Shown: positions 25,675-44,459, counted from the first letter of the stretch. The stretch: 64,000 nt of DNA from an uncultured bacterium (GCA_948684385.1 CAPQCU010000001.1:244545-308544), one strand, 5' to 3'. Numbers and translations are program-made. The notes: generated by a model not told the origin, from the letters alone.

Positions 25675-26283
25675 CTAATATTGTTCAAATTGGGGTATGT
25701 TGTATTTTTCTTCCATACGTTTGTAATTATCGATGTGAATGCCGTAGTAATTATAGGTAAAGAACGGATGTTTTTCGTCATCTAAATTCGGCAATTTCAT
25801 AATATCGTCATAATGGAACAAACAAGGATAATCCCTATCTCCGTTTCTCATAGCTTCAAGTGCAATAATATCCGTTAATAAATCTGCAAACTCCGGAGCC
25901 AGTTTCATATATTTATCTTTTAGTGTCGCAAGAATTTCATTAATATATGCTTTGTAGGCTTGGTTAACGTGATATCTTATATTTCTTACATCATTGTTAC
26001 GCTTTTCTCTTTTTGCAGTTATTCCCGTTATCAGATCATTATTAATTTCAATTTCTTCTTCAATATCTTTTAGCCTTTTATTCAGCTTTTTTACATCTTT
26101 ATTGTCTGCCAACAGTGCAGGTCTTTTTTCTTTTAATTTTTCGGTTTCTTCTTGCAGTTTAATAATATCCTTTTTTGCTTGTTCTGCCCTTTGGCGCAAT
26201 TTGAAATCTTCTTTTTCAAAATCAGTCCTGACTTTCCAAGCATCCTCAAATAATTTTTTCTTTTCTTCAATTTGTTTGTTCAT
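25675..26283 (-). CDS. coiled-coil protein, unknown function
   Basis: Start set at MNKQIEEKKK after AAAGGAGAATTGTT. The K/E-rich N-terminal half is predicted coiled coil. Confidence 0.55.
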   Translation of the reverse strand: MNKQIEEKKKLFEDAWKVRTDFEKEDFKLRQRAEQAKKDIIKLQEETEKLKEKRPALLADNKDVKKLNKRLKDIEEEIEINNDLITGITAKREKRNNDVRNIRYHVNQAYKAYINEILATLKDKYMKLAPEFADLLTDIIALEAMRNGDRDYPCLFHYDDIMKLPNLDDEKHPFFTYNYYGIHIDNYKRMEEKYNIPQFEQY

Positions 26284-26466
26284 AACAATTCTCCTTTTCT
26301 TTTGTGTGGAACTACAGTTGTCCAAGAATAAGGTAATATAAGTTATTTGTATATTTCTACTTGCAGTCGCAAGAGAATTTGGCAAGTGAATGCAGAAACA
26401 AAATCTGAGGTTGGTGCTATAAAATGACCTGAACCTAAACAGTTATTATAAGTGCATTTGCAGAAT

Positions 26467-28029: not shown

Positions 28030-28555
28030 TTGCCTCCTTTATAAGTATTTCGTCAATAGAATTTAATCCGTTTGCTTTTGCTATTATTTCAGCTTTATTT
28101 ATTACTTTTACAATTTGTCGGAACCTGTTTAGATTCGTATAAATATACCTTATTGCGCAATCGGTCATTTCAACTTCGGATAGTTCCTGAACAATTGTTT
28201 TAATATCGTTTTTTGAAAATTTCTCAAATTTTACTATTTCAGATAACCTGTCATATAAATGGTTAAATTTTTTCAATCTTGATTTAGCATTAATCATTCC
28301 AACCAAAACTATGGGGACATTTGTTTTGTCATGAATATCCCTTAATGTTTCAACCGCTCTTGAATCTACTGTTAAATAATCGACTTCATCGATAATTATT
28401 ATTTGGGGATTTACCAATAAATTTCTGACTACAAGCTTAAAGCAGTCTGAAATTTTATAACCGTATATTTCTCCCATTTCTTCAAGTATTTCTGATAGTA
28501 GCCATCTTGCTGACATTAGCTGAGTACATCTTACAAGTAATAAAGAAAATGTCAA
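27986..28555 (-). pseudogene. 5'-truncated AAA+ transposition ATPase (TniB/MuB-like) lacking Walker A
   Basis: Homology to the intact 239-aa copy starts at LVRCTQLMSARWLL (about aa 57 of the intact protein). The GEPGLGKT region is absent. Breakpoint is near 28540. Confidence 0.75.
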
Positions 28556-28641
28556 AACAATCAGGCAGAAAAATCACTTGGAGCACAAGCGAAAAGAATT
28601 GGATTGATATTGATATTCCAAAAATGAAAGGAGACTAATTT

Positions 28642-29256
28642 ATGGGAGGTCGTGGTTCAGGTGGCGGTAAAGCAGGAGGAGGCAAAGCCTCATTAGGTGG
28701 TGCATTCTCTGATATCAGAGCTAATAATAACAGGGATTTTAATGAACAAGTGAAAAGTAAATTATCCGAAATGACTGATAAAGAATTAAATAGAGCTATT
28801 ATTAACACAAAAAATCAGATGAATAACGAAACCGTTAAACTTGCTCTTGAACAAAACAAATTAAGGAAAATGAACGAAGAATTCAGAAAAGTCAATATGA
28901 GTGATAAAGACTACGAATCAAAATCGCTTGCTTTGGATAAACAAATTTCAAAAGTAAACGAAGCTCAATCACGAGCAGATATTCGTACTCAAATTCATTA
29001 TTTGGCAATTAATGAAAAATACAACGTCAGAGATAAACAAGCTACTAATAATATAAAATCAATGACGAACGGACAGTTAAACTCTTTTTACAATAAATCA
29101 TATAAAGAGAGCAGTAAGGCCAGACAAAAAATTGAAAAAACCTCCAATCCTAAAACAAAAGCAAAATATCAGAAAATATATGATCAGCATAATAAAAACT
29201 TCTTTGCAGCAAACAAAGAACGCAACAATCGTGGACTTGATGGAAAAGATTGGTAA
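28642..29256 (+). CDS. hypothetical protein with a Gly-rich N-terminus and coiled coil
   Basis: 204 aa. MGGRGSGGGKAGGGKASLGG. RBS AAAGGAG. Confidence 0.5.
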   Translation: MGGRGSGGGKAGGGKASLGGAFSDIRANNNRDFNEQVKSKLSEMTDKELNRAIINTKNQMNNETVKLALEQNKLRKMNEEFRKVNMSDKDYESKSLALDKQISKVNEAQSRADIRTQIHYLAINEKYNVRDKQATNNIKSMTNGQLNSFYNKSYKESSKARQKIEKTSNPKTKAKYQKIYDQHNKNFFAANKERNNRGLDGKDW

Positions 29257-29260
29257 TATT

Positions 29261-29584
29261 TTATTTACTTTCAATATCTGTAGCTTCTAATTTAAAAATA
29301 ACCGGTCTTAAACCATCATTACAACTACAAATAGCAACACCGGGCTTTTTTATCCAATCGTTGTAATAGAATGTTGACTCTCCTGCACCATGAGCCAATG
29401 CGAATACATATTGATAAATTGCTTTCCAAGCCTCATCGCAAAAACCTTCAGGTTTTGCATAATCAGCATAGAATTCTTGTCCTACTTTATGAAAAGGACA
29501 GGTGGATAATCCGTCAACACCATATTCTTTTGCCAAGTCCTCATTAAACATTGTTTTTAAAACTGTTATTTTTACTTTTTTCAT
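29261..29584 (-). CDS. TIGR04076-like small Cys-containing protein
   Basis: MKKVKITVLK...CPFHKVGQEF...GFCDEAW...ICSCNDGLRPVIFKLE matches my memory of the TIGR04076 family pattern. Confidence 0.55.
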   Translation of the reverse strand: MKKVKITVLKTMFNEDLAKEYGVDGLSTCPFHKVGQEFYADYAKPEGFCDEAWKAIYQYVFALAHGAGESTFYYNDWIKKPGVAICSCNDGLRPVIFKLEATDIESK

Positions 29585-29721
29585 AAAAAACACCCACCTT
29601 AATAAGCATTATAGTACAAAAATGCTTATGTGTCTGAATGATACGAAATAATCGAAATAGACTTTAAATTCAGCAATAGTCGAGTGATGAATGTCATTGT
29701 GCAAAATTAAAGGAGGTCATT

Positions 29722-30513
29722 ATGACAACAATTACAACAACATTGACTGATGTCTTTAAAAGCAGGCAAAATTTTTCAGATTACATTGAGACAAATTCTT
29801 CTGAAGTAATTTCGCAAATATTAGAAAATTACCCAAAACGCTCAATGCATATTGTTTATCCTCAACTGACACAAAGCTCGGAAGGATTAATCAATGCAGC
29901 GGGAGAACTTGTTGAAGAACAAAAAGCATATATCTTTTGGTTTATAGCTAATGAAAAAGAAGATTTACTAAAAATTGCAAAAACGCTTAATAACTTTTTT
30001 GATAAAAATTATTGCGGAATTTTTGTTATTAAAGCCTTTTTAAACAGGGATAAAATAGAGTTTAATTGTATTTTAAAACCGGAACATAGTATAAATATAA
30101 ATACATCTTGCAAAATTATGCAAAAACAATATTGGGAAAAATATTTTGAAATTTGTGATGAAATGGCTCTTGATTTACAAGTTAATCCTCAATATCAACA
30201 CTGGCAATATCTTCCAATGCATAAACGTAGAGTTTGTTTGATGTTGAGTGTTAGTATCCAAAAAGAATATATTGGAGTTGATTTGGTTATTTCAGATAAA
30301 ACTATTTACAAGTACTTATATAATCTAAAAGATAAAATAGAGACAGAATTAGGCAAATTAGAGTGGATAAATGAGCCAAATAATAAAACAAGCAAAATCA
30401 GAAAAACTCTTACTTATGACGTAAGTGATTTAAATACGCAGGCAAAAGCCGTCAAAGATCATATAGATTTAGCATTACAATTCAAAGAAACTTTTTCAAA
30501 ATATCTAAATTAA
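29722..30513 (+). CDS. hypothetical protein; the C-terminal half resembles DUF4268
   Basis: 263 aa. The QKQYWEKYFEICDE...LEWINEPNNKTSKI pattern is as in DUF4268-type domains. Weak call. Confidence 0.4.
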   Translation: MTTITTTLTDVFKSRQNFSDYIETNSSEVISQILENYPKRSMHIVYPQLTQSSEGLINAAGELVEEQKAYIFWFIANEKEDLLKIAKTLNNFFDKNYCGIFVIKAFLNRDKIEFNCILKPEHSININTSCKIMQKQYWEKYFEICDEMALDLQVNPQYQHWQYLPMHKRRVCLMLSVSIQKEYIGVDLVISDKTIYKYLYNLKDKIETELGKLEWINEPNNKTSKIRKTLTYDVSDLNTQAKAVKDHIDLALQFKETFSKYLN

Positions 30514-30925
30514 ATTACATAAATTGGTGTTTTTCAATAATTACAATAGTTTAGGCTGGGTGTCAAAGTGATACCCAGCCTAAAAGTAGATTATTATTAG
30601 CTTTAATGTGTTTTTCACTTAAATATGGTGTCTAAATGATACAAAATTTATGATAATTACTTTATTTTTAGTATCTTTTAATGAATAAATATGCATACTA
30701 AATAAGACTATAAAGTTAAGAGATGTAAATTTTTGATTTATAACATGGTAAAATTTGAGAATTTTATTTGGAGAAACATATGGCATTGGTTATGAAGTGT
30801 TCTAAGGAAAGCATAGAGGAACTATCAAATGATTTTTCTTAAAAAAGCAGTGTAATTTATATATAAATAAATATTCGCTATTATCCTGATATAGGCTGAG
30901 AAAGCAGCTTAGGAAAGGAAGAAAT

Positions 30926-31240
30926 ATGTCTATTAATTACAGAAAATTAGGACAGAAAATTAAACAGTTTAGACTCACAAAAGGTTTATCACAAGAAGAA
31001 CTTGCAGAAAAATGTAATTTATCAACATCTTATATAAGTTACATTGAAACAGGTAAAAAGAAAATTAATTTTTCACAATTAGAAAAAATTTCAAATGAAT
31101 TAAACTTCTCAATAGATATTAATTCAAAAACAGAAGAAAAACATTCTCTTATTACATTATTAAACAAGTGTTCGTTTAGAGAAAAGAAATTTTTAAATAA
31201 GGTGCTAAAACTTATTATATCTGAAATTGAAACTTACTGA
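30926..31240 (+). CDS. XRE-family HTH regulator
   Basis: LGQKIKQFRLTKGLSQEELAEKCNLSTSYISYIETGKK. Confidence 0.8.
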   Translation: MSINYRKLGQKIKQFRLTKGLSQEELAEKCNLSTSYISYIETGKKKINFSQLEKISNELNFSIDINSKTEEKHSLITLLNKCSFREKKFLNKVLKLIISEIETY

Positions 31241-31244
31241 TTTG

Positions 31245-31292
31245 ACTCCCAGTCACATTTGTGACTGGGAGTTTATGGTTTTTGTTTTTTTA
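31245..31292 (+). terminator. strong hairpin plus T-tract between the XRE gene and the serine recombinase gene
   Basis: Perfect 12-bp stem ACTCCCAGTCAC-ATTT-GTGACTGGGAGT, then TTATGGTTTTTGTTTTTTT. Confidence 0.7.
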
Positions 31293-31325
31293 CTTTTTTA
31301 TAATTCAACCTGTATAGGATTAATT

Positions 31326-33164
31326 ATGAATAGTGCAGAACATCAAAAAGACAAAATAAGAGAACGATATAAAGGTTTGGCTGAAGAAGAACTTTTTTGC
31401 ATACCAGCAAAAGAACAAAAATCTGTATTTCATAGTGCTAACATAATAAATGTTGCTGCATATGCAAGAGTTTCAACTGATGGTATAAACCAAACCTCTT
31501 CATACGAATTACAACGAAATTATTATACCGATTATATTAATAAAAATGCGAATTGGCGTTTTGTTGGAATATATGCTGATGAAGGTATAACTGGTACTCA
31601 ATATATTCATCGTGAAGAATTTATTAAAATGATTGATGATGCGAAAGCAGATAAAATTGATTTAATTGTAACAAAAAGTGTTTCTCGTTTTGCAAGGAAT
31701 ACTGTAGATTGTATCGGAATTATTAGAGAACTTCGTAACAAAAAAAAGCCAACATACATATATTTTGAAACTGAAGGTATAAACACACAAGATGATAATT
31801 ATGAAATGGCTTTATCTTTTTGTGCAACAATTGCTCAAGAAGAATCTCACATGAAAAGTAACATTATGAATAGTTCTATTGAAATGAGATTTAAGCGAGG
31901 AATTTTTCTGACTCCACCACTATTAGGTTATGATAAAGATGAAAACGGTAATCTTGTTATAAATGAAGAAGAATCTAAAACTGTAAAATTAATTTTTTAT
32001 CTTTATTTATCAGGTTCAAGCACTCAACAAATAGCAAATACTCTTATGGAGTATGGCAGACTTACTAAAAAAGGTAATACTAAATGGTCTCAAAGTACAG
32101 TTCTACAAATTCTACAAAATGAACGTCATTGTGGGGATATAATAGCAAGGAAAACGTGGACTCCAAATTATCTAGATCATAAGTCTAAAAAAAATAAAAA
32201 TGATAGAAACATGCATGGCCGTAGAGATAATCACGAAGCTATTATCAGTAGAGATGATTTCTTGGCTGTTCAGAAAATAATAAAAAACTCTAAATATGGA
32301 CACAAAGGATTTCTTCCTGAACTAAAAGTTATTAATGATGGCGTTTTAAAAGGTTTTGTATCAATTAACACGTCATGGGCGAATTTTACACCTGAAGATT
32401 ATATTACAGCATCCTTGAGTGCATATTCTTCTGAAGAAATTGATGACGTTATTGAAATAAATGCACAAAAAGGCGAGTTTGATTATAGAAAATTTGAAAT
32501 TGTAAGAAATCAATATGTAAATAGTCTTAATCAAGTAAGCGTAACTTTTACTCCTGAAAAAGTATTTTTTAGTACAGAATGCTTTAAAAAATTCAATTAT
32601 ACCCCATATATTGAAATGTTAATAAATCCTACAAAAAATTTACTAGCTGTCAGGAATGTAGATAATACAAAATGTCGCAATGCTATTAAATGGTTTCGAT
32701 ATTCTAAAAATAAAATTAATACTAGACCAATTCCCGGAACAGCATTCTTGAGTACACTTTATGAAATATTAGACTGGGATCTTGAAAATAAATATAAAAT
32801 TATCGGACAAGCAAAGAGTCGCAATGAGGATTTTTTAATCTTATTTGATTTAACAGAAACTAGTGTACTAATATCTCAATCTTCTATACGTATTAATCAT
32901 ACTGAAATCCCGAAATGTCCATTAACTACAAGTGGTCCTAAAAAAGACCTGGTTGCGTATCCTAAAGTATGGGGTAATAGTTTTGGTAAGCAATATTATG
33001 AACAACAAGCTTTAAAACAGAGGACATTAGCGAATAAAGATTGGAAAATAACACAAGAAGGTATAAAAGTAGAGACTCATACCGAATTAAATACGACATC
33101 GCCAGAGCAAGTATTTAATCATATAGAAAAGATTAAGCGAGAAATCCAAAAGGAGGTAGAATAG
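31326..33164 (+). CDS. large serine recombinase with an extra C-terminal domain
   Basis: Resolvase catalytic N-terminus (AAYARVSTDGINQTSSYELQ, VTKSVSRFARN) and a recombinase domain. Start set at MNSAEHQ. Confidence 0.85.
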   Translation: MNSAEHQKDKIRERYKGLAEEELFCIPAKEQKSVFHSANIINVAAYARVSTDGINQTSSYELQRNYYTDYINKNANWRFVGIYADEGITGTQYIHREEFIKMIDDAKADKIDLIVTKSVSRFARNTVDCIGIIRELRNKKKPTYIYFETEGINTQDDNYEMALSFCATIAQEESHMKSNIMNSSIEMRFKRGIFLTPPLLGYDKDENGNLVINEEESKTVKLIFYLYLSGSSTQQIANTLMEYGRLTKKGNTKWSQSTVLQILQNERHCGDIIARKTWTPNYLDHKSKKNKNDRNMHGRRDNHEAIISRDDFLAVQKIIKNSKYGHKGFLPELKVINDGVLKGFVSINTSWANFTPEDYITASLSAYSSEEIDDVIEINAQKGEFDYRKFEIVRNQYVNSLNQVSVTFTPEKVFFSTECFKKFNYTPYIEMLINPTKNLLAVRNVDNTKCRNAIKWFRYSKNKINTRPIPGTAFLSTLYEILDWDLENKYKIIGQAKSRNEDFLILFDLTETSVLISQSSIRINHTEIPKCPLTTSGPKKDLVAYPKVWGNSFGKQYYEQQALKQRTLANKDWKITQEGIKVETHTELNTTSPEQVFNHIEKIKREIQKEVE

Positions 33165-33165
33165 A

Positions 33166-33921
33166 ATGGATAATAATTTTCAGAATAATGAACAATATTA
33201 TCAAGTTTCCAATGAGTTTACAACTGAGAATTTTGAAAATAGTAATTCAGAGAGTTTATTACCTCAATCAGAAATTAAATATACAAGAGATATGGAAATT
33301 ATTGAAGTTCCAAATTTCAGTTATGATGGTTTTAGAGTCGTTCCAAATAAATATTTTGCACATTTATATGAACCATCTTTCTGTTTTAATTATAACAAAG
33401 TGTACTTGAATACAGCCTGTATAAAGAAATTCCCAAATGTTAATTATATCCAATTTTTAATTAATCCAGAGGATAAAATCTTAGCAATTAAATTATTCGA
33501 AAAAGAAGAAGAAATGGGAACATTCCCTTGGTGTACCCCAAAAAGAAAACCTAAACACATTACTTGTCCTGTCTTTTTTGGAATGATAATGGATTTAATG
33601 GGGTGGAATCCTAATAATAGATATAAACTTCTAGGTAAACTCATAAAAAATAGAGATGAATATTTATTCCTATTTAATTTAAATTCTTTTGAATTTTATG
33701 AACGAGTTATGGATGAAAATAGTGACAAGCCGAAAATGTCTAGAAAACCTTTGTTTCCTGAAGCTTGGGAAGACAGATTTGGCTTGCCTGTCGATGAACA
33801 TAGACGTCAATTACAAGTTAATATTTTAAAAGATTTCATGGTTTATGGTTATTCAGATAAAAAAGATAAATCAAATGTTAGTGTAGAGCTAAATGTTAAT
33901 GGAGGGAATCAAAATGAATAA
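33166..33921 (+). CDS. hypothetical protein homologous to the C-terminal domain of the adjacent serine recombinase
   Basis: Shared motifs KV(Y/F).(N/S)T.C.KKF....YI..LINP..K.LA and W....N(R/K)YK(L/I)(L/I)G......(D/E)..(F/L)LF(N/D)L. Confidence 0.6.
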   Translation: MDNNFQNNEQYYQVSNEFTTENFENSNSESLLPQSEIKYTRDMEIIEVPNFSYDGFRVVPNKYFAHLYEPSFCFNYNKVYLNTACIKKFPNVNYIQFLINPEDKILAIKLFEKEEEMGTFPWCTPKRKPKHITCPVFFGMIMDLMGWNPNNRYKLLGKLIKNRDEYLFLFNLNSFEFYERVMDENSDKPKMSRKPLFPEAWEDRFGLPVDEHRRQLQVNILKDFMVYGYSDKKDKSNVSVELNVNGGNQNE

Positions 33922-34270
33922 TATTCAACCATCTGTAGCAATAAGTTTGAAAAAACCTGCCATACGAATACATAAAGATACCATTCATATGATAGGTGAC
34001 CCCGAATACATATTACTATCTATTGATATTAAAGAAAAAGCATTAGTGATTACACCAAGTATTCAATTGGATATAAAAGCTCATTACATAGGGAAATATT
34101 TACATAATCATGAAAAATCAATTGTTTTATACAGCAAACCTTTAATGGAAACTTTTAAAGATATAAACAAGAATTTATTGAGTAATAAATCGTATAAATT
34201 ATATGGAGTTATTTCTAAAGATAAAAAATGTGTAAAGTTTAAAATTCACGAAGCCATATTGATAAATTAA
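33914..34270 (+). CDS. hypothetical protein, third weaker copy of the same domain
   Basis: RBS GGAGGGAATCAAA-ATG. Contains IRIHKDTIHMIGDPEYILLSI...KALVITP and KSYKLYGVI. Confidence 0.5.
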   Translation: MNNIQPSVAISLKKPAIRIHKDTIHMIGDPEYILLSIDIKEKALVITPSIQLDIKAHYIGKYLHNHEKSIVLYSKPLMETFKDINKNLLSNKSYKLYGVISKDKKCVKFKIHEAILIN

Positions 34271-35178
34271 TGGAGTTTTTAATGCAAGAAAAAAGATTAT
34301 ATAAATTAAAAATTGATGAAGAATTTCAAAAATTAATACCGGAATTAACAAAAGAAGAAAGCGATACTTTAGAAGAACTGTTGCTAAAAGAAGGTTGTAG
34401 AGAACCTATTTGTGTATGGAATGATTACATTATTGATGGGCATAATAGATATTTTTTATGCCATAAAAATAATATTCCATTTAACTTTCAAGAAGTTCCA
34501 GACCTTAAAACAAAGGAAGATGTACTAGATTGGATGTGTGCAAACCAACTTGGGAGAAGAAATATATCTGAAAAAACAAGAATGTACTTAATTGGAAAAC
34601 GCTTTAATCTTGAAAAGAAAGGTGTTCAGGGTAACAACAATGCAACAGGAATTAATCAATATTCTATAAAAGAGAAAATAGAAAAATCCAAAACCAGTGA
34701 AAAACTAGCTGAAGAATATAATGTTTCACCTGTTTCGATTTATCGCTATGCAAGATTTGCAAATGCTATTGATAATATTTCAAAAAAAGAATCAAAATTA
34801 GCAAATCGAATTTTAAATGGACAAATTAAATTTACGAGAGCAGATGTTAATAATTTATCTAATCAAACAGAAAAAGACTTAGGAAATATCAATAAAAAAT
34901 TAAGTAAGCATAAAATAGGAAAATCAAGTTTAGCGAAGAATAAACTTTTAGCAAAATTTAAACAAGCATCTACAATTCCTGATTATGATCCTGACTCAGA
35001 TGTGATGAGTTTGGCATTAACAATACCTTATTGGATTGATTCTGTAGATAGAATTATAAACAAAAAGGACATCAATGATGTTTCTAAAAATGCGAAATGG
35101 AAATTAATTACTGAACTTGGCAACCTAGATATAAAAATAAAAGAAATAACATTAATAATGGAGAATAGCGATGGATAA
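34270..35178 (+). CDS. ParB N-terminal (ParB/Srx) domain protein
   Basis: FQKLIPELTKEESDTLEELLLKEGCREPICVWNDYIIDGHNRY is a classic ParBc pattern. Confidence 0.7.
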   Translation: MEFLMQEKRLYKLKIDEEFQKLIPELTKEESDTLEELLLKEGCREPICVWNDYIIDGHNRYFLCHKNNIPFNFQEVPDLKTKEDVLDWMCANQLGRRNISEKTRMYLIGKRFNLEKKGVQGNNNATGINQYSIKEKIEKSKTSEKLAEEYNVSPVSIYRYARFANAIDNISKKESKLANRILNGQIKFTRADVNNLSNQTEKDLGNINKKLSKHKIGKSSLAKNKLLAKFKQASTIPDYDPDSDVMSLALTIPYWIDSVDRIINKKDINDVSKNAKWKLITELGNLDIKIKEITLIMENSDG

Positions 35179-36034
35179 TTTCAATGATTTATTACCCAAA
35201 GTTCACTTTGAACAAATTCAAATTAAAAATCTAATTCCACAAGTAGGTTATCAAAGGGTTTTATCTAAAGCACATGTAAAAAAAACTGCTGAAAATTTCA
35301 ATCCGTATCAAATAAACCCTGTCAAAGTTAGTAGACGTGAAGGTAAAAATTATGTTGTAAATGGTCAGCATACTATAGAAGTTATTGCTTTAGTTTCAGG
35401 CTCAAGAGAAACTTCAGTTTGGTGCATGGTTTATGATAATTTAACATACGAAGAAGAAGCCGAGATTTTTGCTACTCAGCAAAAATATACAAGATATCTT
35501 AGTTCGTATGATATTTTTAATGCAGAAATAGAAGCTGGAAACGAAGAAGCTTCTATTATTAAATCTGTTGTTGAGAGTTATAATTTAACTATTTCAAGCA
35601 ATCAAATACCTGGTGCAATCTGTGCAATTGCAACACTTGAATCAATTTATGAAAGTTATGGGTATGCAATATTAGATGCAACATTGGGATTGTGTATTGC
35701 AACTTGGCAGGGAGAGAAAAATTCTTTAAGTTCTTATATTCTAAAAGCTGTTGCATTATTATTAGTGGCTTTTCGAGGTGAAATTAAAGAAACTCTTTTT
35801 AAAGAAAAACTTCAATTTACTCCAATTATACAGATTTCAAGAAGTGCAAAATTATTACAAGAAAGCTCTAATAGAAAAGGATATGGTTATGCTTTGGCAA
35901 TGTTAAATATATACAATAGCAGATTAAGTAATCCATTAGATGCAACTAAGCTTTTTACTTGTAGAAAATTAAAAAAATCAAAATATAGCAAAGTTCAATT
36001 TTATGATAAAGCTTCAGAATATGATTATGAATAA
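35171..36034 (+). CDS. ParB-superfamily-like protein (DGQHR-like NGQHT motif)
   Basis: IQIKNLIPQVGYQR...NPVKVSRREGKNYVVNGQHTIE. 8-nt overlap with the upstream ParB-like gene. Confidence 0.5.
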   Translation: MDNFNDLLPKVHFEQIQIKNLIPQVGYQRVLSKAHVKKTAENFNPYQINPVKVSRREGKNYVVNGQHTIEVIALVSGSRETSVWCMVYDNLTYEEEAEIFATQQKYTRYLSSYDIFNAEIEAGNEEASIIKSVVESYNLTISSNQIPGAICAIATLESIYESYGYAILDATLGLCIATWQGEKNSLSSYILKAVALLLVAFRGEIKETLFKEKLQFTPIIQISRSAKLLQESSNRKGYGYALAMLNIYNSRLSNPLDATKLFTCRKLKKSKYSKVQFYDKASEYDYE

Positions 36035-36045
36035 AAAAGGTGCTT

Positions 36046-36402
36046 ATGGAATTTGAAAAATTTAAAAGGTATATAGATGTAATAAAAAATACGTCTGAAA
36101 AAGAAGAAGCTCTTGCTAAGTGCATTGAACAAAATTTAGCATCTAATTCTTTTTGTATAGTTGATATTTGTTCCGATGTTATTGCTTCTTTGGTGGATTT
36201 ACTTGCTACATATTATGATTGTCATTACGAAATACAAGAACATCTGGATAATGAAATTTCATGGTGGCTCTATGAAGATGTTGAAAAAATAATATATATA
36301 AAAGAGAATGGCAAAGAAAAAAAGATTCCAGTTCAAGATATATATAGTTTTTGGAAGTATTTAGAAAGTTCTCGAAATAAAAAATATAAAGACGGTGTTT
36401 AA
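36046..36402 (+). CDS. hypothetical protein
   Basis: About 118 aa. RBS AAAAAGGTG. Confidence 0.45.
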   Translation: MEFEKFKRYIDVIKNTSEKEEALAKCIEQNLASNSFCIVDICSDVIASLVDLLATYYDCHYEIQEHLDNEISWWLYEDVEKIIYIKENGKEKKIPVQDIYSFWKYLESSRNKKYKDGV

Positions 36403-36463
36403 TAATAGGCATAAATATTTTCTTAGAAGATTAAGTTATAGATAGAATGGGGAACATTTTAAA

Positions 36464-36757
36464 ATGTGCGAAAATGCATGGTTAAAATTTAAAAACGTTG
36501 TTATGATTAATACAAAAACCAATGATAAATTGGATTTTGATCCTATAGAATTTTGGATAAATTTTGAATATGAATTAAATAATGCTAAGAGTAAATATTT
36601 AAAAATAAGAGAAAAAGAACTCGACAAGCCACTTGGAATATGGGAAATAAATTGGGAATTTATAGCTGATTTTTATAGAGATTTGAAAAATAATTTTAAC
36701 AATTATGCTGATTCAAATTGGAAAATTGTAAAAATCAAAGGAAATAAGATGAAATAA
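36464..36757 (+). CDS. hypothetical protein
   Basis: 97-aa ORF in the same-strand series. Confidence 0.4.
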   Translation: MCENAWLKFKNVVMINTKTNDKLDFDPIEFWINFEYELNNAKSKYLKIREKELDKPLGIWEINWEFIADFYRDLKNNFNNYADSNWKIVKIKGNKMK

Positions 36758-36773
36758 GCATGAGGTTAGATTT

Positions 36774-37187
36774 ATGTTTTATAGCTTAAGAAAGTTTGGT
36801 AGGTTTATAAAAAGGTTGTGGCGTTGGGTTCCGCTTTTATGGAAACAAGAAGACTGGGACTATGATTACTTATATGAAATAATGCGAATAAAAATGGAAG
36901 AGCTTTTAAAATGCCTAAAAGAAGATAATATTCATGTCGGAGCAGATAGAAGAGCTCGACAATTATCAATATGTTTAGAATATTTTAAAAGAATGAGAAC
37001 TCCGGAAGATTATATTGATATTCCGTCCGAAGATGTTTCTTTTAAGGATACCCCTGATGGTTTTGTTGAGATGAAAACAACTCCTTATTTTAAGCGGCAA
37101 TGTAAAAAATGTAGAGAATTCGAAAAATTTAATTATGATATGTTTTGGAAAAGGTTTGTACAATGGCATACAGAATGGTGGGTGTAA
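36774..37187 (+). CDS. hypothetical protein
   Basis: 137-aa W/R-rich ORF. Its stop lies 3 nt from the stop of the convergent gene. Confidence 0.45.
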   Translation: MFYSLRKFGRFIKRLWRWVPLLWKQEDWDYDYLYEIMRIKMEELLKCLKEDNIHVGADRRARQLSICLEYFKRMRTPEDYIDIPSEDVSFKDTPDGFVEMKTTPYFKRQCKKCREFEKFNYDMFWKRFVQWHTEWWV

Positions 37188-37190
37188 TTA

Positions 37191-38741
37191 TTAGTTTAGA
37201 ATTTCAAAATTATTATCTAATTGTTGTGGTAATAAAAAATTAAATCGTTTTTCAAATTCTGACAGGCTTGCATATCCTAAATTCTTTGAAATTATATTAA
37301 TTTGAATACCTTTGTTTACGAGAAGATGAATATGTGTGTTTAAAAGTAAATCATAATCTTCAATATCTATGTTATTAAAGATTCTACCGGTTTTATTATT
37401 GGGAATATTTTTAAAAAGTATTTGAGGGATCCTCAAATCTCTGTTTTTGTATAATGTTCTGTGTTTTATGATTGTATTATTCACTATAGCTTTATTTATT
37501 TTTACAACTCTGCGTTCAAAATCTATATCGGTATATTCTAATGCAGCAAGCTCTGCCGGAGTTATACCTAAACATATTATCCATAATTTTTCCAACTGAT
37601 TTTTTATTATATTTTTAATATCCTTATCCGTTAAAATTTTAGTTTCTAACATTGGAAGTAAAGTATTATTAGCACTAAAATGAAAATCAATATTGCAATC
37701 CCCATATTCTAACATAATTAAACGCAATAAATTTGTAAATCTTTTAATGCTTGATGGAGTAAATCCTTCTGCAATTTTGTAACTTTGATAATTTTGCAAT
37801 ACTTGAGGAGTAATGTCTTTAAACTTATAGTTTTTAAAATAAGGTAGTAAATGATTCTTTAAGTAACCTTTTCTAGATATATCAAATTCGTTTTTGCTTT
37901 TTTCGATACTTTTTAGGTAAACTCTAGCTCCTTGTATAAAATTTTCATATTTTATTTCATTCTTGTTTTTAATCTCTTTATAATTACTAGTAGTCGTAGG
38001 ATGATTAATTTCTGCTAAATTTAATGGTAAATTCCTCAGTTTATCAATTACTTCTTTTGAATATTCTTTATCTAGCCTTCTTTTAAAAGCTGCAGGATGG
38101 GGTAATATCTCATATTTTTTCTTTAGCATCTTCACACATTGGCTTAATGTATATTTATAACTTGTAAAATATAGACTTTTAAAATCTTCAAACATTTCAT
38201 CTGTGACAGAACTTTTATGATTATCATTCTTATACAAAGGAATTAAACCTTTTATTCCATAGGTTACATAATCTCTTCGTTTTCTCATTAATGTTGAATA
38301 TGAAACTTTATATTCAGGAGTATCTTTACCTAATTGCTTTAAAAATTTATAAAGCCTTATTCCATTAAGATTTCCTGCTAATTTTAAAACAGTCATATGT
38401 TTTATAATTTTAGCCTTCGCCCAGTCAGGAGTATTGTTAAAGATTTCTTGCTCGTTTTCTTTCTTAAAGAGCTGTTTTGTATTTATTGTTTTAAAATCTA
38501 TATTAACTTTTTTGATTTTTTTATCACTCTTATTTTCTATAATTGCAGTCAAAGCGGACTTTTCTTTGTTTTGTGCTATATAACCATATTCTTTGTCAGA
38601 TATTTTTTTGATAATTCCATCATCTTCAAAATTATCTATTACCGGTACTAAAGCTTTTTCATCATATTCCGACATTATTGCAATGTCATCAATTGTAAAT
38701 CTGCTAAGACGTTTGATTAGTTTCAAAATTTTCTGTTTCAT
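37191..38741 (-). CDS. wHTH plus degenerate tyrosine-recombinase-fold protein (candidate third transposition subunit)
   Basis: 516 aa. Integrase SAM-like region (YLKNHLLPYFKNYKFKDITPQVLQNYQSY). The C-terminal catalytic-domain-like region has R-I replaced (GITPAEL), HxLRH replaced (THIHLLV), and Y replaced by F (KRFNFL). Confidence 0.65.
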   Translation of the reverse strand: MKQKILKLIKRLSRFTIDDIAIMSEYDEKALVPVIDNFEDDGIIKKISDKEYGYIAQNKEKSALTAIIENKSDKKIKKVNIDFKTINTKQLFKKENEQEIFNNTPDWAKAKIIKHMTVLKLAGNLNGIRLYKFLKQLGKDTPEYKVSYSTLMRKRRDYVTYGIKGLIPLYKNDNHKSSVTDEMFEDFKSLYFTSYKYTLSQCVKMLKKKYEILPHPAAFKRRLDKEYSKEVIDKLRNLPLNLAEINHPTTTSNYKEIKNKNEIKYENFIQGARVYLKSIEKSKNEFDISRKGYLKNHLLPYFKNYKFKDITPQVLQNYQSYKIAEGFTPSSIKRFTNLLRLIMLEYGDCNIDFHFSANNTLLPMLETKILTDKDIKNIIKNQLEKLWIICLGITPAELAALEYTDIDFERRVVKINKAIVNNTIIKHRTLYKNRDLRIPQILFKNIPNNKTGRIFNNIDIEDYDLLLNTHIHLLVNKGIQINIISKNLGYASLSEFEKRFNFLLPQQLDNNFEILN

Positions 38742-39423
38742 TTATTACAATCTCCTTTAACATAATTTCATCTATTGAAGTCAAACCATTTGCATTAGCA
38801 ATAGCTTCAGCTTTATTAATAATTTTTACTAGTTGGCGGAATCTATTAATATTTGAATTTACATACCTTAATGCACAATCAGTAAAAGCGACTTCACTTA
38901 ACTCTTTAATAATTTCAGCAATATCTTGTTTAGAAAAAGGTTCAAATTTAACAATTTCTGAAAGTCTGTCGTATAAATGCTTATACCTTTTTAATCTAGA
39001 TTTAGCATTAGTCATTCCAACTAAAATAATTGGAATATTTGTTTTATCATGTATATCTCGAAGGGTTTCAACAATTTTGGTATCAATTGTTAAATAATCA
39101 ATTTCATCAATTATTAGTATTTGAGGGTTGGTTATCAAATTTTTGATAATAAGATTAAAACAATCAGAGATTCTACTACTAGCTATTTCCCCCATTTCAT
39201 CTAGAATTTCAGTCAACAGCCATCTAGCAGACATCAATTGAGTACAGCGGACTAAAATAGCATCATTCTTTAAAGCCCACCAGTTAATTGTTTGTGTTTT
39301 TCCTAGACCAGGCTCTCCATATACAAGAGCCATTCCTGGAACACCCTCTGCTCTATTTTGTAAATTACCTACCATTGATATAAACTGTTTTACATTTTTT
39401 GTCTTTACAAAAACTTTTCTCAC
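38704..39423 (-). CDS. AAA+ transposition ATPase (TniB/MuB/TnsC-like)
   Basis: Walker A GEPGLGKT and Walker B ILIIDEIDYL. GTG start after GGAGGTAAAC. Confidence 0.8.
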   Translation of the reverse strand: MRKVFVKTKNVKQFISMVGNLQNRAEGVPGMALVYGEPGLGKTQTINWWALKNDAILVRCTQLMSARWLLTEILDEMGEIASSRISDCFNLIIKNLITNPQILIIDEIDYLTIDTKIVETLRDIHDKTNIPIILVGMTNAKSRLKRYKHLYDRLSEIVKFEPFSKQDIAEIIKELSEVAFTDCALRYVNSNINRFRQLVKIINKAEAIANANGLTSIDEIMLKEIVINETENFETNQTS

Positions 39424-39435
39424 GTTTACCTCCTT

Positions 39436-41517
39436 TTATGAATAAATTTCTTTAAATTCGCTTGATTGAATATAATTTGTCAACCAAGTTCGGTCATCAT
39501 TGGTTATGCAACCATTTTGCATATGCCACTCATATCTTTCGTAGCTTGTTGTAAAAATTGGACGAGCAACAATTGAGGTCTTGATTTTTGGTATAATTTT
39601 TTGCTCTTTTGGAACAACAGGTTTTACTGGTTCATTTGGAATTTTGATTTCATTGACCATTTTTGATTCAATCAATGGAATATCGTCTAAACTGAAATGT
39701 TCCTTGATGGCTTTTATGGTTTTACGTCTTAACTTGGCTTGTTTTTCAATCTTTTGTTTGTAATCTTCAATATCTTTAATATCACCCATCTGTGCAGCAA
39801 GTGGATGCGTTTCTGTAACACGATTAGCCTTACAAATAAATTCCCCTTTTAAGGTATAAACTTTGATATAGCTTAAATCAAATAAACTATATTTAATTAT
39901 TGCTTTTTCTTTAATACCATATAATTCTTCATCAAAATAATCTGCTTTTAAAAACCTAATACCATTCCTGCCAATGGTCTTAACCTCTTGTGCCATCATT
40001 AAATCGTCTAAATTTTTCTCATCAATGTTTTGCTTTTTAACTTCATCTAAAACTTCTTTAACGGTTTTCCCTTCAGCATTTGTACAAGGTTGAGAGTGCT
40101 TGTATTCTAACCATTTATTTATTAATGCAATAGCTTGTTCTATCGTTGGAGTGAATTCATATTTTTCATGCATTGCTTTGTGCAATTTTTCATTTCTTTT
40201 CATCCAAGCCGGCTTATTCTCTATACTTGTTCCAATATAGCTCGGCATCAATTTTTCAAACCCTTCTTGAAAATCCAAAAAGAAACGTTCTATTACTTTT
40301 GCTCTAGCATTGTACGGTGTTGCATATACAGGTTTTATTCCTAATTTTTCGTAAACACCTGTAAATCCTAACTCTTCAAACTTTTTATCTCCATTAAAAA
40401 ATTTAGATTTAAAAGCTCTGCCATTATCTTGATATACAAACTCCGGAATATGATCCATATTTAAAATGGCATTTCTTAAGGCTGAAGCGATATTTTGAGT
40501 ACATTCTTCAAGCATAATATCATATCCCACAAGACCGCCGGATTTCCAATCCAAGAATCCCAATAAAGTTGCCCTACAAGGTTTGCCTGTAAATGGATTT
40601 ATAACTTGGAAATTTAGGGTATGTCCATCAGCTATTAGAACTTGTCCGGGTTTTAATAGAGAAGCATTTCTTACTATATATGGTTCTACTTTATCTTTTA
40701 GTGCTTTTTGTCCTTCTCGCGCTAATGTCCATTTATCTAAATTAAAATCTCGAAACCAATATGCATATCTTCTAAAAGTTATATCTTTAGGAAGTATTTC
40801 GTATCCTCTCTCCATTAATATATGTTTTGTCAGGCTAATGGATTTGCCTATAGAAAAATTATTCGGAGATAAAAGTATTTTTAAGAATATTTTTATTTGT
40901 TCATCGTTTAATGTTGTATTATATTCTTTTCTTGTTGAATATTTATATTGACCAACTAAAGCTGTCCAGTCATTTTTGTATCCTAATGTTCTTCTCCATC
41001 TATATAATGAACCTACGGAAACTTTACCGAGAATTTTAAAGATTTCTTCATGTAAAAAACCTGTGTTATATAATTGAATAAATTTGAAATCAATATTTTC
41101 TTTATTATTAGATTTGAATTGATTATTTTTCTTTTCCCTTTTTTCATTATTTCTAAAATCAATCCAACTTCTCACAATATCATATTTGGCTAGTGCCATT
41201 CTCTTTTGATTTTCTGATATTAATTTTTCTTGTTTGATTTCAAAATTATTTAATTCAATTATTTCATTGTCTATATGTTTAAAATCATCATAATATTCTT
41301 GTATATATTTAATTTGGTACTCTTCTTCTAAAGTCGACAGTTTAATTTTATATGTTTTGCCACCTCTGACATTTTCTACCTTATATTCATATTTATTTTG
41401 ATTGAGTGAAAGACGAACTCCTCTTTTTGTAATACCTTTAAGTTTTGCAACGGTTTCAACATCTACCCAAGTTTGAGTTCTGTCTATATTATTTAATATG
41501 TTATTATTATCCGACAT
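39436..41517 (-). CDS. Mu/TnsB/TniA-family DDE transposase
   Basis: 693 aa. DDE triad (LIADGHTLNF, VYQDNGRAFKS, YNARAKVIERFF) and the TIGRNGI barrel motif. RBS AGGAGATTAC. Confidence 0.85.
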   Translation of the reverse strand: MSDNNNILNNIDRTQTWVDVETVAKLKGITKRGVRLSLNQNKYEYKVENVRGGKTYKIKLSTLEEEYQIKYIQEYYDDFKHIDNEIIELNNFEIKQEKLISENQKRMALAKYDIVRSWIDFRNNEKREKKNNQFKSNNKENIDFKFIQLYNTGFLHEEIFKILGKVSVGSLYRWRRTLGYKNDWTALVGQYKYSTRKEYNTTLNDEQIKIFLKILLSPNNFSIGKSISLTKHILMERGYEILPKDITFRRYAYWFRDFNLDKWTLAREGQKALKDKVEPYIVRNASLLKPGQVLIADGHTLNFQVINPFTGKPCRATLLGFLDWKSGGLVGYDIMLEECTQNIASALRNAILNMDHIPEFVYQDNGRAFKSKFFNGDKKFEELGFTGVYEKLGIKPVYATPYNARAKVIERFFLDFQEGFEKLMPSYIGTSIENKPAWMKRNEKLHKAMHEKYEFTPTIEQAIALINKWLEYKHSQPCTNAEGKTVKEVLDEVKKQNIDEKNLDDLMMAQEVKTIGRNGIRFLKADYFDEELYGIKEKAIIKYSLFDLSYIKVYTLKGEFICKANRVTETHPLAAQMGDIKDIEDYKQKIEKQAKLRRKTIKAIKEHFSLDDIPLIESKMVNEIKIPNEPVKPVVPKEQKIIPKIKTSIVARPIFTTSYERYEWHMQNGCITNDDRTWLTNYIQSSEFKEIYS

Positions 41518-41529
41518 AGTAATCTCCTA

Positions 41530-42006
41530 ATTCGAAGTCATTGTATGTTAGATTGAAATTTATCAAATTGGAAGTCATTGAGGAGGAAGTGTGTCGTTTT
41601 GTATCCTAAAATTTCAAATTGTAAAGTAAAATAAATTACTTCATTTTATTATGTTGAAGTAATTTATTAAAAAACTTTTAAATACCTTTTAAAAATTTAC
41701 ATTTTGAGGGAAAATTTCTCACAAAAACTTCCTACTTAAGGATTTTAAAGCAATCAGATGTAAGTAACAGAAAGAATGAGAAAACTACAATAAATTACCT
41801 GAAACGAGAGGGAAGTAAATTCCACGTTACAAGAGGGAAAGAATGAATTTTACTGCATTATAAACACTTCCGACTTTTTCATATTTTATGGTTTGAGGTA
41901 ATTTATAATGTCAATTTGGCATCAATACCTAAAAGCCAAATATATCAAAGGATTAAGGCAAAATGCGAGGATTTAAAACGGATTTTTGAGGTAATTAAAG
42001 CGGACA
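41530..42006. repeat. array of putative transposase-binding repeats at the element end
   Basis: GAAGTCATTG x2 (41534, 41571). Perfect 14-bp inverted repeat AATAAATTACTTCA/TGAAGTAATTTATT (41630-41668). GAAGTAAAT (41812), GAGGTAATTT (41894), GAGGTAATTA (41988). Confidence 0.6.
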
Positions 42007-42095
42007 TATTTGCTAAATTAATTTGACCGAAACTATTTTGCGGGAACTCGGCTAATATTCAAATGTGTCGGGGGTTTTAGCGAGTTCTTGTTAAA

Positions 42096-44459
42096 TTAAC
42101 GGACTTTCCGTTTGTCCTGTAACTTTATATTTGCAACTCCGCCTATTTCAACACCGTCAATTAATTCTTCTTGTTTTATGCCCATAACCTCCATCGACAT
42201 ATTACAAGCAATAAACTTGACTCCATTTTCCTGTGCTTGTTTGATTAATTCCGCCAGAGTTGAAACATTTTTATTTTTCATAACCCATTTCATCATAGCT
42301 GAACCCATACCAAACATATTCATTTTCGAAAGTGTAAGTTTTTCTGCTCCTTTTGGCATCATTAAACCAAACATTGTATCAATGAATGATTTTTTTACGT
42401 TTACATTTTCTTTTCTTAAAATGTTCAATCCCCAAAAAGTAAAAAACATTGTAACATCTTTCCCGCTTGCTTTTGCACCGTTTGCAATTATAAAAGAAGC
42501 TAAAGCTTTATCTAAATCATTTGAAAAAACAACGATTGTCTGTCCGTTTTTTGTTTCATTAATACTATTTTTATCTTGCAGATTGCCTTTTTGGATTGTT
42601 GCAACAATTTTTTTATCAATAGTATCCAAATTCAATAATCTGTTTCCCGTTGAACTGCACCAAGCCTCAACATCAGAATAAAATCCTTTATCTGTTGAAG
42701 TTATTTCTAAAACATCACCTTCATTAAGATTAGACACATTTTCAGAAAGTTTCATAATAGGTCCCGGACAAGATAAACCGCAAGCATCAATTTTCGTAAT
42801 ATTCTGATTTTCTGATACTGCAACTGCTTGCAGTGTGCTTGTTTTGGTAATTTTTCCTTCCTTATCTCTTTGAATTTCAGAATACAACTTCATTCCGCCC
42901 ATAAACGAATAAACATTATTAAATCCGTTTTGAATAAGTATTCTTGAAGCTAAATAGCTTGTATAGCCCGAATTACAAATCAAAATAACTTTTTTATCTT
43001 TTGGAATTTCATCAAGCCTGTTTCTCAATGTTTCAATCGGAATATTAATTGCTCCTTCAATTGTTTTTGTATTAAAACTTTCAGGAATTCTCACATCAAT
43101 CACAAAAGAACCTTCTAAATCTTCATAAAATGCGGGTTTTACAAAACCTTTCAATACATTATCAGCGCACATTCCCAAAATATTTATAGGGTCTTTAGCA
43201 GACGAATACGGCGGAGCATAACATAACTCGCTATCCAAAAGTTCTTGCACGCTACCATTATTTCTCATTATTGAAGAAATTACATCAATTCTTTTTTCTA
43301 CGCCTTCTTGACCAACAGCTTGTGCACCTAAAATTTTACCATCATTATTGAATAATAGTTTATAAAAAGTTGAAGTTGCATCAGGATAGTATCCTGCATG
43401 AGAATTTCCAAATGTTAAAATCTTCCAATAAGAAATATTTTCTCTTTTTAAAATCTTTTCATTGTATCCTGTACAAGCAACGGTATAATCAAAAACTTTT
43501 AAAACAGATGTACCTTGCGATTTTTTGTAAGTTGAATGAATTCCGCAAATATTATCAGCAATAATTCGACCTTGCCTGTTGGCAGGTCCTGCTAAAGGAA
43601 TTAAAACATCATTATCGGTTACAAAGCTTTTTATTTCAACACTATCACCGCCTGCATAAATATTTTCATCAGAAGTTTGCATTTTGTCATTAACCTTAAT
43701 GCCACGATTAGTCTCTAAACCAGCATTTTGCGCCAAAGTAATCTCCGGTTTTACTCCGATTGCCAAAATTGCAATATCATATTCAAATCTTTTACTTGAA
43801 TTTAACTCTATTTCACCGTCAGAAAATCTTTTTACCCCATCGGATAAAATAAGTTCTACCCCGTTAACCCTCATCTCATTTTGTGCAAAACAAGCAACTT
43901 CATAATCAACAGGAGCAAGAATCTGATTAGATAGTTCGACAACTTTAGTGTTAATTCCAAGATGAGCTAAGTTCTCAGCCATTTCAATACCAATAAAACC
44001 CGCACCTATTACAATAGCTGATTTAACATTATTTTTTGAAATATAATTTTTAATTTTATCAGCATCATCCAAAGTTCTTACAGTAAAAATGTTTTTGTTA
44101 TTAATTCCTTCTAATGGAGAAATTATCGGATTTCCTCCCTGTGCTAAGACAAGTTTGTCATAATAAAATTTTTCACCAAGATTAGATAAAACATATTTTT
44201 CTTCTCTGTTAATTTCAACTACTTCTGTATTTAATCGAATATCAATATTAAACATATTCTTAAATTTTTGAGGGTTTGATACAAGGATTTTTTCTCTATC
44301 ATTAATTACATCTGAGCAGTAATATGGCAAACCGCAATTTGCAATTGAAACTTCATTAGTACGTTCAAGAATAGTTATTTCACAATTTTCATCCAATCTT
44401 CTTAACCTTGTTGCACAACTTGCACCACATGCTCCACCTCCGATTATAATTACTCTCAT
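42096..44459 (-). CDS. CoA-disulfide reductase-like flavoprotein fused to rhodanese, TusA-like and DsrE-like domains
   Basis: GGGACG FAD motif, redox Cys in SIANCGLPYY, rhodanese loop CNSGYTS, TusA CPGP motif (GLSCPGPIMKL) and a DsrE-like C-terminus. Start set at MRVIIIGGG after GGAGGTGCA. Confidence 0.8.
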   Translation of the reverse strand: MRVIIIGGGACGASCATRLRRLDENCEITILERTNEVSIANCGLPYYCSDVINDREKILVSNPQKFKNMFNIDIRLNTEVVEINREEKYVLSNLGEKFYYDKLVLAQGGNPIISPLEGINNKNIFTVRTLDDADKIKNYISKNNVKSAIVIGAGFIGIEMAENLAHLGINTKVVELSNQILAPVDYEVACFAQNEMRVNGVELILSDGVKRFSDGEIELNSSKRFEYDIAILAIGVKPEITLAQNAGLETNRGIKVNDKMQTSDENIYAGGDSVEIKSFVTDNDVLIPLAGPANRQGRIIADNICGIHSTYKKSQGTSVLKVFDYTVACTGYNEKILKRENISYWKILTFGNSHAGYYPDATSTFYKLLFNNDGKILGAQAVGQEGVEKRIDVISSIMRNNGSVQELLDSELCYAPPYSSAKDPINILGMCADNVLKGFVKPAFYEDLEGSFVIDVRIPESFNTKTIEGAINIPIETLRNRLDEIPKDKKVILICNSGYTSYLASRILIQNGFNNVYSFMGGMKLYSEIQRDKEGKITKTSTLQAVAVSENQNITKIDACGLSCPGPIMKLSENVSNLNEGDVLEITSTDKGFYSDVEAWCSSTGNRLLNLDTIDKKIVATIQKGNLQDKNSINETKNGQTIVVFSNDLDKALASFIIANGAKASGKDVTMFFTFWGLNILRKENVNVKKSFIDTMFGLMMPKGAEKLTLSKMNMFGMGSAMMKWVMKNKNVSTLAELIKQAQENGVKFIACNMSMEVMGIKQEELIDGVEIGGVANIKLQDKRKVR

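Follow-up and report, generated by a model that had tools for sequence, protein, structure and literature searches.

The taking over of an inactivated tyrosine recombinase by a DDE transposon has been described for the Tn7-like element Tn6022, whose target selector TnsF carries an inactivated tyrosine-recombinase domain and is indispensable to the movement of Tn6022; it makes contact with TniQ and binds to comM (Faure et al. 2023; PMC10293859; PMC11014353). TnsF is built from N-terminal zinc fingers, a tandem pair of core-binding (CB) domains, CB1-CB2, and a partial catalytic (CAT) domain of about 70 aa, and sequence searches by Faure et al. gave no TnsF homologues in other systems (PMC10293859). 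The element analysed here is a cargo transposon found in a stretch of 64,000 nucleotides from an uncultured bacterium (GCA_948684385.1, CAPQCU010000001.1:244545-308544), which is referred to as the window and in which positions are counted from the first letter. Its transposition operon encodes a DDE transposase (TnpA), an AAA+ ATPase and a third protein, C, which has the fold of a tyrosine recombinase with its active site replaced and is a candidate target-capture subunit acting together with the ATPase. The coordinates of the features are collected in Table 1, and the loci and proteins used for comparison are given L and P numbers.

The three open reading frames (ORFs), the GEPGLGKT (Walker A) and IIDEID (Walker B) motifs of the ATPase and the 38 nt common to the ATPase and C genes, all reported in a preliminary description of the sequence, were confirmed by an ORF check, which placed the three ORFs on the minus strand. 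TnpA matched the Pfam families Mu-transpos_C (5e-14), HTH_Tnp_Mu_2 and, weakly, rve, and contains an invariant catalytic triad (D297, D364 and E410) with a D-D spacing of 67, as in MuA. As the single TnpA sequence gave no phmmer match among PDB sequences, a profile search was needed, and the profile built from eight transposase homologues returned MuA as the best solved relative (4fcy, 9.8e-9, profile positions 113-430 and 517-608, covering Iβ-Iγ-core) and TnsB of the V-K CRISPR-associated transposon (CAST) as a weak match (0.01). The ATPase matched AAA_22 (2.5e-19) and TniB (3.9e-8), with MuB (8xvb, 3e-7) and VchTnsC (7ufi, 4e-7) tying as its closest PDB sequences, and its ratio of nonsynonymous to synonymous substitution rates (dN/dS) was 0.02.

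A 5-bp target duplication is the signature of Mu/Tn7/Tn5053-type transposition. The element has such a duplication as well as terminal inverted repeats, a MuA/TnsB-type DDE transposase and a MuB/TniB/TnsC-type ATPase, as expected of the Mu/Tn552/Tn5053/Tn7 superfamily. The operon comprises the transposition genes of a Mu/Tn5053-class cargo transposon; it looks functional, and the element has moved. Matches to the TnsA and TniQ/TnsD families were absent from the module of the window and from L001, L039, L041 and L042, so that the element is not Tn7-like in the strict sense, and C had no TniQ Pfam match at E<=1. The core resembles those of phage Mu (MuA/MuB) and Tn552 (p480/p271), which likewise make 5-bp target duplications and have long ends with several binding-site repeats. 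Unlike Mu, the element is not a phage, because its cargo varies (restriction-modification, defence and other genes), and its termini are TA instead of the usual TG/CA. Unlike both Mu and Tn552, it has a third subunit, and the module contains no serine resolvase of the BinL/TniR kind.

The third subunit consists, in order, of a winged helix-turn-helix (wHTH, residues 1-55), a MuA Iβγ-like domain (~88-238), a CB domain (~265-347) and a compact dead CAT domain (~371-505). The integrase fold that had been proposed for it was borne out by profile and structure comparisons. In a Pfam scan C matched Phage_int_SAM_3 (PF14659, 3e-8 over residues 290-321) and, weakly, the Mu Iγ helix-turn-helix (HTH), and gave no score for PF00589, a family in which its relatives do score. 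A C profile searched against PDB sequences returned the XerC-like 4a8e (1.9e-4), the Tn1549 integrase (Int), XerA and 2kd1, followed by weaker matches to MuA (4fcy, residues 102-245) and to the MuA Iγ subdomain (2ezh), and tblastn with residues 290-510 found annotated integrases only. An AlphaFold model computed from a 20-sequence alignment (A3) had a mean predicted local distance difference test (pLDDT) score of 77 and well-defined domains. When this model was compared with the PDB by Foldseek, the significant matches were, as in the profile search, tyrosine recombinases only, headed by Tn1549 Int (E 2.5e-6) and including XerA, IntI, Cre, XerH and λ Int; the alignments with Tn1549 Int, XerA and IntI ran over ~300 columns, and the CAT domain of P2 integrase (5c6k/5dor) gave a template modelling (TM) score of 0.59-0.62 over 165 residues. 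Both the SAM-like core-binding domain and the catalytic-domain fold of tyrosine recombinases are present in C.

The catalytic positions were mapped by aligning C with a true integrase (P0050) and 30 relatives. In C of the window, Arg-I is replaced by T, Lys-β by L, His-II by D, Arg-II by L, the His/Trp residue by N, His-III by Y and the nucleophilic Tyr by F, and the R-K-H-R-H/W-Y set of active tyrosine recombinases accordingly reads T/L/D/L/Y/F. The substitutions that had been read by eye therefore hold, including Phe for the nucleophile here and Tyr in a second C copy in the window, and the loss of the full catalytic set stood up to proper alignment; only the HxxRH box had been misplaced, as it corresponds to D464-L-L-L467-N468 and not to THIHLLV. 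Since all catalytic residues have been replaced, the integrase fold of C is predicted to be unable to cut or rejoin DNA. A canonical Arg-I or His-II occurred in none of the 31 family members aligned. In the clade of P0189, P0192, P0200, P0204 and P0208, Lys-β, Arg-II, His-III and Tyr remain and an Arg is displaced by one residue; this clade scores well over the PF00589 threshold, and the CAT domain of relatives 535-561 aa in length also passes PF00589.

The Iβγ-like domain had been missed in the preliminary description. Residues 145-221 of C align to residues 165-250 of TnpA from the same element (E 3e-4), an exhaustive C-profile search draws in Mu-type transposases of 650-860 aa via positions 85-240, and the N-terminus of a 668-aa transposase encoded elsewhere in the window matches C proteins at E 1e-10 to 3e-14. 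Judged by these alignments, residues ~85-240 of C are a copy of the Iβγ-like DNA-binding domain of Mu-type transposases. Mean pairwise identity within C was highest in the dead CAT domain (0.50) and lowest, among the folded domains, in the Iβγ-like part (0.36-0.39). With dN/dS of 0.12 between the window and L001, and of 0.05-0.19 among type II copies, C is under purifying selection and is not a pseudogene.

Close relatives of C fell into ~50 clusters, none of them named, and the exhaustive profile search extended the family to 504 representative clusters at E<1e-10. Scanning one genome per species, for which the alignment with distant members was too diverse, gave 32 C loci, nearly all in metagenome-assembled genomes (MAGs) of gut or rumen Gastranaerophilales/Melainabacteria. 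The survey of the triad that had been suggested showed a conserved Mu-type operon, with the TnpA-ATPase-C order and the 38-nt overlap kept in ~25 loci and the overlap present in every locus checked. Across these loci, identity to the window proteins was 68-78% for TnpA and 70-75% for the ATPase but only 34-45% for C, which diverges much faster than its two partners.

C sorts into five types, and the types of the ATPase coincide with those of C while the types of TnpA do not. Identities of TnpA, ATPase and C were, respectively, 97%, 70% and 34% between L015 and L019, 81%, 96% and 82% between L009 and L007, and 83%, 98% and 89% between the window and L001, and a multi-locus comparison of left ends showed that the type of the left end goes with TnpA. 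Because ATPase and C types co-vary while TnpA recombines separately, the ATPase and C are best described as one co-inherited module, and TnpA and the left end as another.

The third subunit also occurs in other forms. In the more distant loci L039-L041 the relatives of 535-561 aa whose CAT domain passes PF00589 are likewise encoded in TnpA-ATPase-C operons, and the cargo that comes next is type I restriction-modification or TIR/nSTAND defence. Many proteins of ~250 aa correspond to the N-terminal module of C alone, and in L042 (7001-7780) and L044 (2806-3585) a 259-aa protein with only the wHTH and the Iβγ-like domain is the short third subunit of an otherwise similar minimal element. L027 has tandem C paralogues (8470-9942 and 10001-11527) 3' of its ATPase gene, 34% identical to each other. 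At L045 (971-2300) the protein is divided between two ORFs, a 268-aa N-module and a CB-like one of 176 aa. Elements of type III hold 1.2-1.8 kb of extra DNA between tnpA and the ATPase gene (L017 8047-9319, L018/L031 777-2573, L028 4983-6255).

Taken on the sequence comparisons, we see about an even chance that C is a non-catalytic DNA-binding subunit that partners the ATPase in target capture or selection. The partnership is supported by the conserved overlap, the co-variation of ATPase and C types, the tandem C paralogues and the coexistence of short and long forms. The 38-nt overlap is read as translational coupling of C to the ATPase gene in all cases. C would take the position and role that TniQ/TnsD, or TniQ plus TnsF, have in Tn7/Tn5053 elements: with its HTH domains and its dead CB-CAT clamp it would bind, and probably bend, the target DNA, and it would nucleate or position the ATPase on the target, whereupon the ATPase would recruit the TnpA-end complex. 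As related elements have the N-terminal module by itself as a third subunit of 259 aa, it would be the core of C, and the dead integrase part an added DNA-binding or bending extension; short and long forms would then be analogous to the short TniQ and long TnsD of Tn7/Tn5053-like elements. Target selection would not proceed by one attachment sequence and might be biased to the downstream side of tRNA genes and to resident copies. A more specific proposal can be made only tentatively, with the chances leaning against it, namely that C represents a new class of AAA+-coupled target-capture subunit, in which a transposase-derived DNA-binding module directly contacts a MuB/TniB-like ATPase without a TniQ adaptor, and which in the long forms is extended by a dead tyrosine-recombinase clamp that steers insertion to DNA structure or context rather than sequence, such as the DNA downstream of tRNA genes or the ends of copies already in place.

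The sites occupied by the elements are varied and include the CoADR/DsrE gene, tRNA-proximal DNA and others. The flanks of same-type elements had no common sequence, no common 9-mer and no shared motif, and an attachment-site hypothesis was rejected on that account. In L001 (6363-6437), L007 (6279-6352) and L019 (59-134) the left end has a tRNA gene (Ala, Met, Val) 150-255 nt upstream, in the same orientation as tnpA, and genes for tRNA-Ser and tRNA-Ala were found near the right ends in L008 (19974-20063) and L026 (15393-15468). This proximity seems to exceed what random insertion would produce, in a small sample that is confounded by mobile-element hotspots. Several insertions are nested, with the left junction within the left end of another copy; this is clear in L023 (~6160-6226) and L024 (~4755-4821), where the two copies have the same orientation and the junction is ~255 and ~78 nt from the tip, and tandem right-end sequences occur at 19790-19900 of L008. 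Nested and tandem copies suggest either that there is no target immunity or that resident copies are preferred.

Several points weigh against a target-capture role for C. Comparison of left-end flanks showed elements with 96-98% identical C at unrelated sites, which speaks against sequence-specific selection; because elements with near-identical C occupy unrelated sites, C is not an attachment-site selector of the TnsD kind, there is no fixed attachment site, and the earlier proposal of a target-site selector has to be given up in the sense of attachment-site specificity. The tRNA-proximal and nested sites may reflect the survival of neutral insertions rather than targeting, and the insertion in the window, which cost its host gene 15 codons, does not lie at a 'safe' site. 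Contact between C and the ATPase is supported indirectly, by co-inheritance, and binding of target DNA by C is putative; the Iβγ-like domain would fit binding of C to transposon ends just as well. Finally, the P0189-type clade is the closest to an active enzyme, and because it keeps Lys-β, Arg-II, His-III and Tyr, the ancestral role of C may have been catalytic (resolution).

The main alternative, though a rather doubtful one, is that C is an end-binding accessory protein or regulator, the Iβγ-like domain of which binds repeats in the element's own ends, either bending DNA for transpososome assembly, a part played for Mu by IHF/HU, or competing with TnpA and repressing the tnpA promoter, as do InsA/OrfA-type inhibitors and the Mu repressor. 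The homology of residues 85-240 to Mu-type transposase DNA-binding domains and the ~610-bp left end with its several repeat families fit this explanation, as does the fact that tyrosine-recombinase clamps bend DNA. However, C proteins of types III and IV, only 34% identical, serve near-identical TnpA (97%) and upstream regions, and in L009 the left end is type IV-like and C is type II-like; as the type of C is not tied to that of the left end or the transposase, the end-synapsis role offered as an alternative in the preliminary description is disfavoured. An inverted repeat at 41629-41668 that overlaps a promoter-like site (41670-41643) was considered as an operator, a weak idea, since the promoter match does not exceed chance level and the repeat is not conserved across types.

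Less probable still is that C is, or derives from, a cointegrate resolvase similar to the tyrosine recombinase TnpI of Tn4430, dead in this element and either kept for a structural role at a res-like site or compensated by host recombination. TnsA was found in no element, and TnsA-less elements transpose replicatively and need resolution; the P0189/P0192/P0200/P0204/P0208 clade, in passing PF00589 with four of its catalytic residues, points the same way and makes a resolvase origin plausible for the ancestor of C. Yet no member of the 31 examined has a canonical Arg-I or a canonical His-II, C of the window is under strong purifying selection without any of the six catalytic residues, the short forms do without the integrase part, and C co-varies with the ATPase and not with any identifiable res site. 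That C is a decaying integrase pseudogene or cargo that became a neighbour by chance, as the loss of all catalytic residues and the lack of a PF00589 match might imply, is hardly credible. It is essentially refuted by conservation and selection: ORFs are intact in >25 loci with the 38-nt overlap conserved, dN/dS is 0.05-0.19, >500 representative clusters are found at E<1e-10, and the gene keeps the same position in distant lineages.

Like TnsF, which belongs to the closest known system, C contains an inactivated tyrosine-recombinase-derived domain and has its gene within the transposition operon, 3' of that for the AAA+ regulator, and both have relatives with more complete active sites (Tsy for TnsF, the P0189 clade for C). 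TnsF serves as a DNA-binding target selector that DDE transposition cannot do without, and C may be likened to it in principle. The two differ in that TnsF acts via TniQ in an element with TnsA, TnsB and TnsC, whereas the C elements lack TnsA and TniQ and have a Mu-like core, unlike Tn6022; TnsF targets a single site, the Walker B region of comM, whereas C elements are found at many unrelated sites. C combines a wHTH and an Iβγ-like domain with one CB and a full, compact CAT domain of ~135 aa, and its only three cysteines and single CB do not correspond to the zinc fingers and CB1-CB2 of TnsF. Matches of C to curated families included none that could correspond to TnsF, which is weak evidence against homology. 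Because the architectures differ, we infer that C is an exaptation independent of TnsF. Literature searches found no description of the TnpA-ATPase-C triad, and as far as they reach the novelty claimed for this architecture stands, although the principle of a dead-integrase selector has a precedent in TnsF.

C is unrelated in sequence and fold to TniQ/TnsD of Tn5053 and Tn7-like elements but resembles them in other ways: its gene comes third, behind those for the transposase and the AAA+ ATPase, and it evolves fast, takes part in module exchange and exists in short and long forms, and the tandem duplicates of L027 are reminiscent of dual TniQ/TnsD loci. As an accessory protein carrying a copy of a transposase DNA-binding domain it is comparable to IS1 InsA, IS911 OrfA and the Mu repressor (with respect to MuA Iα). 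Unlike in those proteins, the domain in C is joined to a dead integrase and varies together with the ATPase, not with the transposase or the ends.

Table 1. Features of the transposon and its surroundings in the window
Feature	Position	Strand	Basis
Whole transposon, 24,937 bp, mosaic of two related types	17193-42129	-	Empty-site contig L038
Target duplication copy 1, GCAAA (minus strand)	42130-42134	-	Junction reading
Target duplication copy 2, GCAAA (minus strand)	17188-17192	-	Junction reading
Transposase-proximal (left) end, ~610 bp, terminus 5'-TATAAAGTTACAGGACAAACGGAAAGTCCG	41518-42129	-	Multi-locus alignment of left ends
Distal (right) end, terminus read inward 5'-TATAATTGGTCAGTCGAAATGGAAAAAGTCGGACAC	17193-17617	+	Junction reading, alignment
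tnpA, 693-aa Mu-type DDE transposase (TnpA)	39436-41517	-	ORF call, Pfam, PDB profile search
AAA+ ATPase gene, 239 aa, MuB/TniB/TnsC class	38704-39423	-	ORF call, Pfam, PDB search
C gene, 516-aa third protein	37191-38741	-	ORF call, Pfam, PDB profile, AlphaFold/Foldseek
Second C gene, type II, intact	26467-28023	-	ORF, alignments, dN/dS
Type II ATPase remnant, without ~48 N-terminal codons	27986-28534	-	ORF (reads 27986-28555), Pfam, alignment
ImmA/IrrE-type metallopeptidase with HTH, type II cargo	19956-21026		
D12-class adenine methyltransferase, type II cargo	21964-23151		
TdeIII-like restriction endonuclease, type II cargo	23160-24011		
N6/N4 methyltransferase, type II cargo	23995-24753		

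The limits of the element were set with an empty site, which was reached from the C-terminus of the adjoining 811-aa CoADR/rhodanese/TusA/DsrE ORF through an allele (P0053), 100% identical to this ORF except at the very end, to contig L038. Positions 1-10970 of L038 correspond to window 53167-42126 at 99% identity, and positions 10961-11922 to window 17192-16192, so that the contig is 99% identical to both flanks of the insertion. At the 3' end of the host gene the last 15 codons have been swapped for 11 transposon-encoded ones, and the native C-terminus KYISESSNANSNLFI has become NIKLQDKRKVR (window 42096-42134; L038 10961-11011).

The termini form an imperfect inverted repeat starting with TATAA (TATAAAGTTACAGGAC... 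and TATAATTGGTCAGTCG...). The left end holds repeated GTCCG and GGTAATT motifs and, within 41632-41998, five copies of a TTGAGGTAATTTA-like repeat; a candidate binding-site pattern, RTCCGYTWWAAT, was not enriched. No terminal inverted repeats that could be used came out of a generic repeat search over 24000-42300, and inverted-repeat searches of left ends against downstream DNA, made locus by locus, were mostly uninformative. A left terminus TGTCCG at 42006, paired with a right-end candidate at 24896, proved wrong, as the empty site and the multi-locus alignment give 42129 and 17193. A leader of ~70 nt directly 5' of the tnpA start (window 41520-41600, minus strand; GACACAAAACAACACAYTTCCCCCT...TTCCAWTTTGAGA...TCTAACATAC) contains a small potential hairpin and is kept in all element types, including loci in which the remainder of the left end has been swapped (L015, L028).

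The mosaic consists of type II DNA in the outer left end (41816-42129) and in all of 17193-28534, which match L007/L008/L012, and of a type I segment (28535-41816) which matches L001, homology to L001 ending at 41816. The type I segment has supplanted the inner left end, the TnpA gene and the first ~48 ATPase codons of the type II element. Position 28535, once considered as a right end, is an internal breakpoint that cuts the type II ATPase gene and a type I-side gene, the latter leaving a 29-codon remnant upstream of a 204-aa ORF.

The second C copy lies in the type II part and is 43% identical to the first. The preliminary description had correctly recognised this copy at 26467-28555. Its 44-nt overlap with the ATPase gene arises from a TTG start (giving a 520-aa ORF at 26467-28029), and the conserved ATG (MKQKIL) gives 38 nt, the same as in related loci. 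The ATPase is truncated and the transposase is gone; C itself, described as decayed, is intact, 97-98% identical to C of the complete elements L007/L008/L012 and within the type II dN/dS range given above.

The type II cargo forms a block at 19956-24753 (Table 1). Just inside the distal end, at 17618-19624 on the plus strand, lies the gene of the 668-aa Mu-type transposase (HTH_Tnp_Mu_2, Mu-transpos_C), which is 23% identical to TnpA and has no adjoining ATPase or C partner. The similarity of its N-terminal domain to C proteins equals that to TnpA, and the gene is found at the same place in L012 (96%) and as fragments in L018 and L031. Converging on the C gene, a plus-strand block at 29722-37187 encodes a DUF4268 protein, a Cro/C1 HTH protein, a 645-aa large serine recombinase, ORFs of unknown function and a DUF6551 protein. 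This block is syntenic beside C in L001, L003 and L033 and may be a nested integrative element or conserved cargo.

If C has the role proposed here, a DDE transposon would for a second time, and independently, have turned a tyrosine recombinase into a cofactor that does no catalysis, this time in a simpler Mu/Tn5053-like core that lacks TnsA and TniQ. Such a second independent case would make the recruitment of the integrase fold as a partner of AAA+ regulators look recurrent and not an oddity of Tn6022, and, should C constitute a new class of target-capture subunit, the graded loss of the active site would show a recombinase being domesticated into a transposition cofactor independently of TnsF. 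The machinery is compact, with a transposase of 693 aa, an ATPase of 239 aa and a third protein of 516 aa, or of 259 aa in the short form, and the three proteins could be reconstituted. The naturally occurring short and long forms and the graded decay of the active site provide material for studying the evolution of target-capture subunits. The family is widespread in uncultured Gastranaerophilales of the gut and rumen and in related metagenomic lineages, where it moves restriction-modification and defence genes.

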